A stretch of 64,000 bases of DNA from an uncultured Bacilli bacterium (GTDB taxonomy: Bacteria > Bacillota_I > Bacilli_A > RFN20 > DUOF01). The notes under the pieces were generated by a model that was not told the origin of the DNA, searched no databases, and was given only the letters and a program-made list of their open reading frames with translations. A program made the position numbers and the translations under genes. The stretch lies in contig CAKPSD010000001.1 in assembly GCA_934183255.1 (NCBI GenBank), positions 517,728 through 581,727 of the forward strand. The letters are read 5' to 3'. Of the stretch, positions 27,338 to 59,428 are shown piece by piece. Position 1 is the first letter of the stretch; the number at the start of each line of letters is the position of its first letter.

Positions 27338-27500
27338 TAAAATAAACTTAGTTTTTTGAACTTTAATATTCAAATAGTTATTCGTTTAACCTCACAATAA
27401 ATAACAAAGCATACTTTATTGTCACAAATTTTAATATTTTCTCTTTTACTTTTTAAATTAACACATACCAATGATCAGGCATATTATCAACTCCTTTATA

Positions 27501-27529
27501 TTGACATAAAGTCTTTTTAATAATATAAT
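27501..27529 (+). promoter_or_regulatory. orphan consensus sigma-A promoter (TTGACA-17-TATAAT)
   Basis: Exact TTGACA at 27501-27506, a 17-nt spacer and exact TATAAT at 27524-27529. No downstream plus-strand CDS. Confidence 0.45.
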
Positions 27530-27536
27530 TAATTTA

Positions 27537-27600
27537 AGATTAGCGATAGGTTAAGTCCTATCACAGCTTGAATTAAGTTTCAATACCGCTAATCTTTTTT
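27537..27600 (+). ncRNA. candidate small structured RNA / complex terminator (twin hairpins with identical TTAAGT loops)
   Basis: A 9-bp outer stem AGATTAGCG/CGCTAATCT encloses two 5-bp hairpins, each with a TTAAGT loop, followed by a TTTTTT tract. It sits directly downstream of the consensus promoter. Confidence 0.3.
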
Positions 27601-27928
27601 ATTTGTATTTGTCTTTGGCTTTATCAATAATAGAGTCAAAAACTTTTTTATTTTCTTTAGATACTTTCCAAGGCATTTTTCTTCCTGTAGATTTATGCAT
27701 TACTTCTACTTTATTTAATGCATAATTTCTTTTAGTATCATCTTTGTTATCATTCTTTGGTAAAGGAACATTTTTTACTTTATTTGTGTATTCACTATGC
27801 GTTACACCTATACCATAATACTCTGTTTTATTATATTTTCTATCTTCATCAAAGACATAATAACTATGATTTCTTTTGCCTTTATCTCTATTTCTTTTAT
27901 AATAAGGAACAAATTTTTTCTTGCTCAT
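27599..27928 (-). CDS. small basic Lys/Tyr-rich hypothetical protein
   Basis: 109-aa ORF, highly basic, no motif. Confidence 0.35.
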   Translation of the reverse strand: MSKKKFVPYYKRNRDKGKRNHSYYVFDEDRKYNKTEYYGIGVTHSEYTNKVKNVPLPKNDNKDDTKRNYALNKVEVMHKSTGRKMPWKVSKENKKVFDSIIDKAKDKYK

Positions 27929-27934
27929 AAACTA

Positions 27935-28186
27935 TTATCTTTTTTTATTACGTTTATTATGGTTATAAGCTCCAGCACTATCTTTAGCATGAGCTATATA
28001 CCCAGCCCTATATGCTTTTTGTTCATCATCTAATCTTAAGGTCTTACCATTTTTATCAAGTTTAAATTTACGATTGTTAGTTTCTCTAACCCCTCTTTTT
28101 AATTCTCTTGAATACTTCAATAATTTTTCTGATGGATTTAACAATGTAATTGTTTTACCATTTTCTTTTTTTATTTTTACTACCAT
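27935..28186 (-). CDS. small basic hypothetical protein
   Basis: 83-aa ORF, highly basic. Tandem with the previous ORF. Confidence 0.35.
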   Translation of the reverse strand: MVVKIKKENGKTITLLNPSEKLLKYSRELKRGVRETNNRKFKLDKNGKTLRLDDEQKAYRAGYIAHAKDSAGAYNHNKRNKKR

Positions 28187-28410
28187 AATTCATTCCCCTT
28201 TCTAAATAATTATCTCTAGTTTGCATTATTCTTCCATCACCTATTTTATGAGATCTATTTTTGTTTTTTCTTTTCATCACTTTAAATTTATACTTTTTAA
28301 ATTAAAATACTTCGACACTATTTATTATAAAAGAAATTATTTTTGATTAGTGTTAGTCTTGTTTCAATGTAATCTCACAATGAGTTCTAGATTGATTGTA
28401 TTATTATAAA

Positions 28411-28445
28411 CAAATAAAAAAAATAGAGCTTTGTTCGCTCTATTT
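28411..28445 (-). terminator. rho-independent terminator downstream of tRNA-Lys
   Basis: AATAGAGC-loop-GCTCTATT hairpin with an A8 run on the plus strand, which is a U-tract on the minus strand. Confidence 0.5.
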
Positions 28446-28519
28446 TTGTATTCAATAATCATATTGAAATAATATATAGTCATACTAACACTAAAATAGC
28501 ATTAGTTGAAATTTAAAAA

Positions 28520-28595
28520 TGGTGATCCGTACAAGATTCGAACTTGTGACCCATTGATTAAGAGTCAATTGCTCTACCAGCTGAGCTAACGGACC
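28520..28595 (-). tRNA. tRNA-Lys (anticodon CTT)
   Basis: Cloverleaf folded by hand. Anticodon stem ATTGA/TCAAT with loop CTCTTAA. T-arm ACAAG-TTCGAAT-CTTGT. CCA is encoded. Confidence 0.85.
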
Positions 28596-28753: not shown

Positions 28754-29074
28754 ATGAATGATGACACTGTCGCAGTTAATAAAAATAAAATGTACAAATT
28801 AATTAATGTAAAGAAGTATGATAAAGCACGTAGTTATTTATATGAGGAGCAAAATAATGTATATCAAATGGCAATAGAAAGATTAAAACCTTTCATTGAC
28901 CATAAAATTATATATGAAGATGAAGTAGATATTTTTGTTCAAATAATTGAAGAAAATTTAATCTATAATATGTTAAAAGAAGAAGGTAATATACCTATGA
29001 ACTGTATGTTCTTAGATAAAATAATAGATAAAAAGAAAAAATTAGAGTTTTTAAAAAAGATCAGAAATTGCTGA
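28754..29074 (+). CDS. hypothetical protein
   Basis: 106-aa ORF preceded by an extended -10 (TGCTATAAT) and followed by a terminator. Confidence 0.4.
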   Translation: MNDDTVAVNKNKMYKLINVKKYDKARSYLYEEQNNVYQMAIERLKPFIDHKIIYEDEVDIFVQIIEENLIYNMLKEEGNIPMNCMFLDKIIDKKKKLEFLKKIRNC

Positions 29075-29088
29075 TCTTTTTATTTTTT
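29055..29088. terminator. bidirectional rho-independent terminator
   Basis: AAAGATCAG-AAATTG-CTGATCTTT plus a T-run. The A-run gives a U-tract for the minus strand, so it can also terminate the hydrogenase operon. Confidence 0.6.
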
Positions 29089-59351: not shown

Positions 59352-59428
59352 TGGTAGCGGAAATAGGACTTGAACCTACGACCTGTCGGGTATGAACCGA
59401 ATGCTCTAGCCAACTGAGCTATTCCGCC
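59352..59428 (-). tRNA. elongator tRNA-Met (CAT)
   Basis: The …CGGTTCATACCCG… anticodon arm is typical of Firmicute elongator Met. Confidence 0.75.

Follow-up and report, generated by a model that had tools for sequence, protein, structure and literature searches.

The window analysed here, 64,000 nucleotides (nt) of contig CAKPSD010000001.1 from an uncultured member of the Clostridia of about 27% G+C known only from gut metagenomes, contains at positions 27501–27600 a consensus promoter that is followed directly by a branched RNA structure and a U-tract. We identify this unit as most likely a conserved, unannotated antisense RNA gene of a mobile-element remnant, linked to a protein family with a predicted MazF fold. 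The predicted small RNA (sRNA) is Y-shaped, about 62–65 nt long, and converges on a gene for a 109-aa protein, which we designate gene X. The reading that we favour, at a probability of roughly 0.45, is that the unit is a genuine cis-antisense sRNA gene controlling the X transcript, which would make the RNA resemble a type I antitoxin with a MazF-fold partner. Positions are those of the window unless they are preceded by a locus handle.

The promoter and the Y-shaped RNA structure

The earlier note on this DNA, made from the letters of the sequence, had described an exact TTGACA-17-TATAAT promoter, the lack of a plus-strand open reading frame (ORF) downstream of it, and a 9-bp stem that begins 7 nt past the −10 box, encloses two hairpins with TTAAGT hexaloops and ends in T6. 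We found the promoter and the whole structure as described, no plus-strand ORF was found downstream, and the 65-nt product has no AUG. In the 64-kb window, 1 promoter with 12 of 12 consensus matches was observed and 0.05 were expected. The outer stem is formed by AGATTAGCG (27537–27545) paired with CGCTAATCT (27587–27595). In the minimum free energy (MFE) fold, this stem is shifted by one base (27536–27544 with 27588–27596) and G27545 moves to hairpin 1. The MFE fold is a three-way junction, and the 5′ end of the RNA is paired into the closing stem. From the sequence, the transcription start would lie at A27536/A27537, 7–8 nt past the −10 box. The MFE of the sRNA was −19.4 kcal/mol, compared with −8.4 ± 2.5 kcal/mol for dinucleotide shuffles (z about −4.2 to −4.5). 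The structure, which the earlier note had called unusually ordered for a plain terminator, is more stable than expected by chance (z = −4.45; 0 of 200 shuffles as stable).

On the plus strand, the G+C-containing stem and the U-tract have the form of an intrinsic terminator, and the U6 of the sRNA (T6, 27595–27600) overlaps the stop codon of X (27599–27601). The complementary strand has an equally stable fold, but its stem is followed by UUAAAUUAAUUAU and not by a U-tract; therefore, the terminator is one-directional. The branched loop within the stem caused a simple terminator scanner to miss the site. The alternative name that had been given to the structure, a strong insulating terminator, is right in that it terminates the plus strand; however, it stops the RNA of its own promoter and does not insulate two gene sets. 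The two convergent gene sets themselves are there, X ending within the U-tract and a 184-aa plus-strand gene ending 160 nt upstream of the promoter, but they are not equivalent neighbours. The 184-aa gene is chromosomal and lies outside the inserted element described below. The description of the promoter as an orphan was wrong, since the unit is part of a mobile-element remnant and is convergent with the MazF-fold gene X.

Rfam covariance models matched only 14 tRNAs when the whole window was searched at gathering scores. At E ≤ 10, the region around the element gave two noise matches only (eukaryotic small nucleolar RNAs, E > 1). On six related loci at E ≤ 1, the models matched nothing but one tRNA, and the C4 antisense RNA (RF01695) was not matched.

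Just past the first terminator on the sRNA strand, within the 3′ coding end of X (L010:3281–3313, minus strand; window 27611–27643), is another terminator-like hairpin with a T-tract, well formed in L010 and carrying a weakening substitution in the window. A longer RNA isoform could arise from it, or it could serve as a back-up stop.

Gene X has a predicted MazF/PemK-like fold

The X protein is basic and hydrophilic. An exhaustive HMMER search of 1.84 billion proteins recovered 11 representatives of its relatives, which share the motif GHPxYVF...IGITH..T.GvKNIPL.KNPNP, with residues H21, T43, T48 and N53 invariant. The AlphaFold2 model built from the 12-sequence family alignment (predicted local distance difference test [pLDDT] 85, predicted template modelling score [pTM] 0.78) shows β strands followed by a C-terminal helix, arranged as a predicted β-barrel with the helix at its C-terminus. 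Structural comparison by Foldseek against the PDB revealed that more than 30 of the top 50 matches were MazF toxins, the best being MazF-mt1 (probability 0.97, template modelling [TM] score 0.61, E 0.28). Against the BFVD viral models, the top three matches were annotated ‘PemK-like protein’, ‘PemK/MazF family toxin’ and ‘Endoribonuclease’ (probability 0.97–0.98, E 0.07–0.11).

Sequence comparison revealed no such relationship. X had no match in Pfam even at E ≤ 10, nothing meaningful in PHROGs, NCBIfam and PADLOC, and no match in a sequence search of the PDB. The X sequence does not match the MazF/PemK profile, which includes the catalytic Arg and Thr, and none of the 12 X-family members was matched by the ToxN/AbiQ/CptN/TenpN models of PADLOC and Pfam. 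On the predicted model, we consider X to be probably MazF/PemK-like by fold and not a member of that family.

The mobile-element remnant and its intact counterpart

The flanking genes, a comparison that had been proposed as a check, were compared between relatives. In a sister species (locus L012), the flanks have about 86–90% DNA identity and the same gene order, and the tRNA-Lys(CTT) gene stands almost directly after the 184-aa gene. The element therefore lies within a 1.1-kb insertion, because the sister species has this gene order without window positions of about 27386–28509. The insertion contains the 83-aa gene directly upstream of X, X itself, the promoter–RNA unit and a 9-codon gene stump, and it adjoins the 3′ end of the tRNA-Lys(CTT) gene (28520–28595). 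Integration by duplication of the tRNA 3′ end was considered and is unsupported, as there is no clear direct repeat around the insertion. The Shine–Dalgarno sequence of the stump, AAGGAG (complement of 27491–27496), sits just beside the −35 box. The intergenic region is 100% identical among nine contigs of the window species from different samples. Samples in which the species is present include ERZ27287395 and ERR7738268. Judging by the sequence, the window copy has decayed to a remnant that keeps X, its upstream gene and the RNA unit intact.

The intact counterpart is locus L010 (also L011), a 12-kb contig with a copy of X that is 94% identical to that of the window and with the unit beside it. 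Its gene order comprises a tyrosine integrase, a divergent helix-turn-helix repressor, an early promoter, a long operon of small genes on the same strand, large surface and membrane proteins, and a Rep_trans rolling-circle initiator. The unit lies on the antisense strand between X and the next gene. Window positions 27463–28015 align to L010 with 91% identity. Loss of the promoter and structure from all relatives had been named as grounds for rejecting the unit; both are kept in L010, which has both promoter hexamers and the same distance from the −10 box to the stem, and adds an extended −10 TG. Around the hexamers, 5 of 24 bases differ, and 14 differences fall in the 72 positions of the promoter-side spacer (about 20%). 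By contrast with such divergence, the 59-nt RNA core has no change between the window and L010/L011. With neutral divergence of about 0.2 changes per site, the chance that all 59 nt stay unchanged would be (0.8)^59, about 2e-6. For X, the nonsynonymous divergence (dN) is 0.023 and the synonymous divergence (dS) 0.20; X is under purifying selection, given a dN/dS of 0.11.

Intact elements (L010:4387–9325; L116/L118:4061–4777) encode a tyrosine integrase, a repressor, rolling-circle initiators (Rep_trans or Rep_1), an Ig-like surface protein, membrane proteins, and P-loop proteins with faint Zot matches. This content suggests inovirus-like or other small integrative elements. The intact elements were not found in IMG/VR or in the phage and plasmid collections searched.

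An antisense unit stands behind X in six lineages

Six lineages of X homologues were compared, namely the window with L010, L109, L115–L120, L121, L122, and L123–L128; genomic context was obtained for four distant lineages of X relatives. Protein identity across the lineages falls to about 33–40%, and the G+C content of the hosts ranges from about 27% to 55%. In all six, the antisense strand directly after the X stop codon carries (i) a near-consensus promoter; (ii) a gap of 6–8 nt; (iii) a stem-closed structure of 51–110 nt; and (iv) a U-tract over the stop codon. The promoters of the distant lineages consist of TTGAC[AT] or TTGATT, a spacer of 16–18 nt, and TATAAT, TATACT or TAATAA; the structures of these lineages measure 57–110 nt, and in every lineage the −10 box ends 6–8 nt before the base of the closing stem. 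In hosts of 45–55% G+C, the promoters at this place have 10–12 of 12 consensus matches, where less than about one such site per kb is expected. Eight candidate RNAs all fold with the 5′ end in the closing stem, with z values between −2.0 and −5.4 save for L115.

Between lineages, the structures diverge strongly in sequence. The stems of the relatives lack a following U-tract when read in the sense direction, so sense transcription should read through. The protein neighbours of X, both upstream and downstream, are unrelated between lineages; thus, the antisense unit is the only constant neighbour of X. The small regulatory RNA that the earlier note had offered as one possibility is, overall, partly supported, by an intact unit in an independent, complete mobile element and by units of like layout behind every sampled X homologue.

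A hairpin with an invariant loop core

A hairpin of the form (C/U)GAA-UU[AA/CG]GU-UUC(G/A) recurs with compensatory changes. The aligned hairpins are hairpin 2 and hairpin 1 of the window, arm B of L115–L120 (GUAGC..CGAA-UUAAGU-UUCG..GCUAC), arm B of L123 (GGCG..CGAA-UUCGGU-UUCG..CGCC), and an arm of a second unit in L122 (GUAGGAUU..CGAA-UUAAGU-UUCG..AAUCCUAC), which is followed there by a separate plain terminator hairpin. Loop positions U1, U2, G5 and U6 are invariant, and all five stem pairs are changed on both sides. In this alignment, 87% of cells are paired compared with 73% in shuffles, and the covariation score is 0.64 compared with 0.33 (0 of 500 shuffles reach it; slid controls ≤0.24). 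This covariation comes from a small sample of related sequences and is supportive, not decisive. The UUAAGU and UUCGGU loops open with YUNR (UUAA or UUCG), a U-turn motif that Franch et al. (1999) reportedly described as typical of antisense RNA recognition loops. The twin identical loops singled out by the earlier note are present in the window; they are not a conserved feature, since the relatives keep one UUNNGU hairpin. This hairpin is missing in the RNAs of L109 and L121 and in the X-adjacent unit of L122.

Searches for further copies were negative. The exact 59-mer and a 39-mer had no match in genome contigs and viral contigs, and a loop-and-linker pattern gave 10 matches in JGI metagenomes, all of them stemless chance matches, and none in viral contigs. 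Blastn and tblastn against phage and plasmid collections revealed no further copy of the element or of X. In IMG/VR, protein-guided scans (with X, the X-family alignment and a 449-aa protein) and a two-arm DNA pattern found nothing, and the 16-mer CGAATTAAGTTTCGGG had 5 matches, none with the promoter–structure–terminator layout; two of these were plain hairpins with the same loop, one of them terminator-like. Nor did the window-based covariance model detect another copy when 80 loci of related Clostridia (about 1 Mb) were searched.

The sequence CGAA-TTAAGT-TTCG also tips longer stems in two unrelated IMG/VR contigs (L133:4228–4243 and L131:7047–7062). In L133, a T-tract directly follows the stem in a terminator-like manner; in L131, about 12 nt separate the stem from a T-run. 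The UUAAGU loop may be a generally favoured hairpin cap.

Proposed control of X and alternative readings

In the favoured reading, the RNA would be made from a strong, constitutive promoter of the consensus housekeeping-sigma type. Its first bases would pair with its last bases to give a closed Y shape that should be stable, and its own U-tract would stop transcription precisely where the convergent gene X has its stop codon. The RNA would be perfectly complementary to a mirror-image structure at the 3′ end of the X mRNA, and in intact elements this target structure would be the intercistronic region between X and the next gene. The YUNR-type UUAAGU hexaloops may start loop–loop ‘kissing’ with ACUUAA loops of the sense RNA, after which the full duplex would be cut by RNase III or the sense transcript otherwise destabilised. 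X would thereby be kept at low expression, as would the genes behind it where the element is intact. X, presumably toxic, and the RNA would most likely form an addiction or regulatory module of the type I kind with a MazF-fold protein, because X has a toxin-type predicted fold and X and the RNA survived the decay of the element. The occupation of one site by alternative gene-plus-RNA cassettes (described below) fits such a module. The features of natural cis-antisense RNAs, namely an own promoter opposite a gene, complementarity, a terminator and YUNR loops of 5–8 nt, are all present in the sequence. So is the type I geometry of an antisense RNA overlapping the toxin mRNA, with the X 3′ flank complementary and the U-tract over the X stop codon in the window and in five other lineages.

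Several observations weigh against this reading: (i) the overlap covers only the X stop codon and 3′ flank, not the coding region or the ribosome-binding site, so repression would act via mRNA stability or processing; (ii) the link between X and MazF is one of predicted fold alone, at Foldseek E values of 0.07–0.3, probabilities of 0.97–0.98 and TM scores of 0.53–0.62, and an hhalign comparison of X with the MazF proteins of B. subtilis and E. coli gave an E of about 0.7; (iii) X, being hydrophilic and 109 aa long, is unlike the classical type I toxins and is no small (<60 aa) hydrophobic membrane protein, a rule to which SymE and RalR are exceptions; (iv) the covariance search of relatives proposed in the earlier note found the right place and strand in L115–L120 and L123, but only at the noise level of 11–13 bits (E 3–7); (v) the L115 RNA is no more stable than its shuffles (z = −0.5); (vi) the second units of L121 and L122 do not abut X, and the UUAAGU hairpin of L122 sits in that second unit, so that such RNAs may be a general feature or control device of these operons and not the private partner of X; (vii) the loop sequence is conserved across distant elements, which pure cis-antisense action does not explain; and (viii) identical runs of 58–71 nt also occur within the X coding region between the window and L010. 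The identity of the 59-nt core is noteworthy despite these runs, because the dS of 0.20 gives a neutral yardstick.

The conserved loop fits better with a reading, also among those offered by the earlier note, in which the RNA is a protein-binding element, here an antitoxin or decoy of the type III kind, its UUNNGU hairpin or hairpins binding X (or an X dimer) and blocking the active site, with the antisense position serving only for linkage. The loop bases U1, U2, G5 and U6 and the closing GAA/UUC are kept though the X proteins are only about 35–40% identical, which protein recognition would need and cis pairing would not; the predicted fold of X is MazF/Kid-like, the fold class of ToxN and CptN (PMC5086642); the two identical loops of the window would suit a symmetric dimer; and the RNA is the only constant neighbour of X. 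We nevertheless consider this reading unlikely. The RNA is not a tandem repeat array, does not lie upstream of X or on its strand, and has no terminator between itself and X (PMC5086642). The ToxN, AbiQ and CptN models do not match X, the UUAAGU-hairpin RNA of L122 is not the unit that abuts X, the RNAs of L109 and L121 and the X-adjacent RNA of L122 have no UUNNGU hairpin, and the twin loops are not conserved. Quite improbable, in our view, is that the unit acts by transcriptional interference, the strong promoter opposing the sense operon so that polymerase collisions damp read-through, the Y-shaped terminator only keeping the antisense polymerase out of X, and the RNA being a by-product. 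The promoter does face the sense operon, with about 20 nt between its −35 box and the start codon of the next gene, the one-way terminator lets sense transcription pass, and two units stand at successive gene junctions in L121 and L122, as in a general operon control. Yet interference needs no particular RNA, and the core has 0 of 59 changes at a dS of 0.20; a covarying hairpin with invariant loop bases is kept across distant elements; the start always lies at the base of the closing stem, which points to selection on the RNA itself; and the remnant in the window has no downstream genes left, while its promoter and RNA are intact and identical in nine contigs.

It is very improbable that the structure works at the DNA level, as the single-strand origin, packaging signal or nick site of a mobile element of the rolling-circle or filamentous-phage-like kind, with a promoter that is unrelated or primes synthesis. 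Genes for rolling-circle initiators are indeed present in intact elements (Rep_trans in L010, Rep_1 in L025), faint Zot matches were obtained for some neighbours, and the structure folds equally well as DNA on either strand. However, single-stranded DNA folds (260 nt, both strands) are stable only at the Y structure and leave the promoter region unpaired, its hexamers outside the hairpins, so that the region does not mimic ssoA, Frpo or the M13 minus origin; the structure sequences differ greatly between lineages; and a duplex-type consensus promoter 6–8 nt from the stem in six lineages, with a U-tract on the same strand, would remain unexplained. The chances are slimmer still for a trans-acting or tRNA-like RNA whose loops (UU-AAG-U, and UU-CGG-U in a relative) offer codon-like triplets or mimic tRNA arms, possibly in connection with a tRNA-cleaving MazF-like protein; some MazF toxins cleave tRNA. 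Hairpin 1 (27547–27561, TAGG-TTAAGT-CCTAT) equals the T arm of tRNA-Met (59352–59428, TAGG-TTCAAGT-CCTAT) minus C56, with 15 of 16 positions matching and 4 of 500 shuffles reaching the score against 14 tRNAs, a statistic that is inflated because both sequences are self-complementary hairpins. The UUAAG loop is complementary to C34–A38 of the anticodon loop of tRNA-Lys(CUU), the gene of which the remnant adjoins. But the element is recognised neither by ARAGORN nor by the Rfam tRNA model, the known loop variants number only two, and in a trans-target search for the RNA only the cis site stood out. Last, a chance promoter beside an ordinary terminator that does no more than end transcription is hardly credible. 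Promoter-like hexamers are common in a 27% G+C genome (22 sites with at least 9 of 12 matches in 2.7 kb, 23.5 expected), and terminators are expected between convergent genes. A 12/12 promoter, however, is expected 0.05 times in the window; it is kept in L010 despite about 20% local divergence; promoters with 10–12 matches stand at the same place in the 45–55% G+C hosts, against an expectation of less than about 1 per kb; and the spacing from −10 box to stem is always 6–8 nt.

The sense strand of hairpin 2 (27568–27584; ATTGAAACTTAATTCAA) resembles the anticodon stem-loop of tRNA-Lys(CTT) (ATTGACTCTTAATCAA; 28520–28595). The resemblance is not significant, 116 of 2000 shuffles being as good, and mimicry of the tRNA-Lys anticodon arm is unsupported. 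Both tRNA likenesses are leads at most.

Relation to known systems

The txpA/RatA and bsrG/SR4 pairs of B. subtilis are type I systems of Firmicutes. In these and in C. difficile CD2517.1/RCd8 and its relatives (PMC6563280), as in the unit described here, a small antisense RNA is convergent with a gene on a prophage or prophage remnant, and the 3′ ends of the two transcripts come together at a stem-loop that both share; the known pairs undergo RNase III-aided duplex decay and persist in decayed mobile elements. Convergent antisense RNAs that overlap at the 3′ end are the norm for Firmicutes type I systems in prophage regions (PMC6563280). The unit differs from them in that (i) the partner is a hydrophilic 109-aa, predicted MazF-like protein and not a membrane peptide of 30–60 aa; (ii) the overlap comprises only the stop codon and the 3′ flank; (iii) the RNA is a closed three-way junction of about 65 nt; and (iv) the target is intercistronic in intact elements, not terminal.

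For a non-membrane toxin controlled by an antisense RNA, the closest precedent is SymE/SymR of E. coli. There, a cis-antisense RNA with a strong constitutive promoter controls a non-membrane toxin of about 110 aa with a fold related to the MazE/MazF world (PMC1891008). However, SymR covers the symE 5′ end with its ribosome-binding site, whereas the RNA described here lies at the 3′ end of X; the SymE fold is that of AbrB/MazE, not MazF; and the two RNAs have no similarity in sequence or structure.

The type III systems (ToxIN, CptIN, TenpIN and AbiQ) share with our unit the combination of a Kid/MazF-like-fold toxin with a structured non-coding RNA and no protein antitoxin, and they occur on mobile DNA (PMC5086642). 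Their RNAs are tandem repeats upstream of the toxin gene on the same strand, with a terminator between, and are processed by the toxin (PMC5086642), whereas the RNA behind X is a single unit with a promoter of its own, encoded downstream of X on the other strand. X is not matched by any ToxN-family model, and the X locus has no upstream same-strand repeat array with a terminator. Short RNAs of about 77 nt, structured and with their own promoters, are also known from within phage early operons, namely lambda OOP (against cII) and P1/P7 c4. OOP is antisense to the cII 3′ end and the following intergenic region and triggers RNase III cleavage, and c4 recognises its target via two loops. The unit differs from them in having no sequence or Rfam match (RF01695 was not matched), in its hosts and element types, and in its MazF-like partner, which is no lysogeny regulator.

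MazF-type toxins are textbook type II toxins with protein antitoxins. A speculative and rather doubtful suggestion is that X and its RNA are an undescribed, hybrid type I/III toxin–antitoxin or abortive-infection module, in which a divergent MazF-fold family without a protein antitoxin is checked by a convergent, closed, Y-shaped RNA with the UUNNGU hairpin, acting as antisense, protein binder or both. Its carriers would be integrative elements of uncultured gut Clostridia. If the linkage holds as read here, the RNA family would be new to Rfam and the MazF-fold protein family new to Pfam, and the two would be a recurring two-part module on mobile elements of abundant uncultured human-gut Clostridia. 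Control of a MazF-fold protein by RNA would make the boundaries between types I, II and III less sharp and offer a compact 65-nt model that is easy to test. Such modules stabilise mobile DNA and are often anti-phage defences, which would make the pair relevant to the ecology of mobile elements in the gut. The combination of an ‘orphan’ consensus promoter, an immediately following closed structure and a U-tract can serve as a sequence-only signature for sRNA genes.

Neighbouring genes and cassette exchange

The features of the window and of related loci are collected in Table 1. The 83-aa protein encoded directly upstream of X has no Pfam match and a poor model (pLDDT 68) without an antitoxin-like fold match; as a MazE-like antitoxin, it is unsupported. 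No MazE/PemI-type antitoxin gene was found immediately upstream of X, where the genes are unrelated across lineages. The loci with homologues of the 83-aa gene (L025, L026 and L028) were found without the element.

Strains L109–L113 share the left flank of the remnant up to about the −35 box and its right flank from 28142, and carry a different cassette between; the points of exchange are near the −35 box on one side and within the 83-aa gene on the other. The promoter of the alternative cassette is TTGACA-18-TAAAAT with an extended −10. At 8 nt past the −10 box begins a stem-closed branched structure (GAGUUACA...UGUAACUC) with two inner hairpins, and its U5 overlaps the stop codon of another convergent gene, that of a 120-aa protein with a weak likeness to the X family (hhalign E 0.007). 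As seen in the sequences, the promoter–structure–terminator layout therefore recurs with a different sequence at the same site.

Table 1. Positions of the antisense unit, of gene X and of associated features in the window and in related loci
Feature	Position	Strand	Basis or remark
sRNA promoter: −35 TTGACA 27501–27506, 17-nt spacer, −10 TATAAT 27524–27529	27501–27529	+	Exact consensus
Predicted Y-shaped sRNA, ~65 nt	27536–27600	+	Fold energy; 59-nt core 100% identical in L010/L011; no Rfam match
Closing stem, 5′ strand (partner 27588–27596)	27536–27544	+	Sequence and fold
Hairpin 1: GAUAGG-UUAAGU-CCUAUC, hexaloop 27551–27556	27545–27562	+	Sequence and fold; loop start is YUNR (UUAA)
Hairpin 2: UUGAA-UUAAGU-UUCAA, hexaloop 27573–27578	27568–27583	+	Recurs in distant relatives
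Closing stem, 3′ strand (27588–27596), and U-tract (27595–27600): intrinsic terminator	27588–27600	+	Sequence and fold
Gene X: 109-aa basic hydrophilic protein, predicted MazF/PemK-like fold, convergent with the sRNA	27599–27928	−	ORF, family alignment, predicted structure
83-aa gene directly upstream of X, same operon; not a conserved partner of X	27935–28186	−	ORF, neighbour comparison
Mobile-element remnant, ~1.1 kb, missing in the sister species	27386–28509		L012 locus comparison
9-codon stump of a truncated gene, which in the intact element comes next after the RNA unit	27453–27482	−	Homology to L010 3418–3464
Replaceable cassette within the remnant	~27507–28141		L109–L113 carry a different gene-plus-RNA pair
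Alternative cassettes at the same chromosomal site	L109:4719–5176; L110:3994–4367		Gene of 120 aa, truncated to 92 aa in L110/L111
Second antisense units (consensus promoter, structure, U-tract)	L122:3411–3524; L121:3430–3517	−	After a 73–76-aa gene, two genes upstream of X

In some relatives, the 83-aa family gene is followed by a gene for a different basic protein (…KKRAALIIDKNDEGELGLVPMSGS…; L028:1023–1457). The N-terminal GRxxxTRDNYL motif of this L028-type protein persists in the window as a 41-codon stump upstream of the 83-aa gene (28155–28280, minus strand). By its sequence, the stump appears to be a further sign of repeated cassette exchange.

A chromosomal terminator lies between a 106-aa gene and a hydrogenase-like gene both in the sister species (L012:9122–9150) and in the window (29054–29081). 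The sister-species stem, AAAGATTAG...CTAATCTTTTTT, nearly matches the outer stem and U-tract of the element, a likeness that is probably a coincidence.

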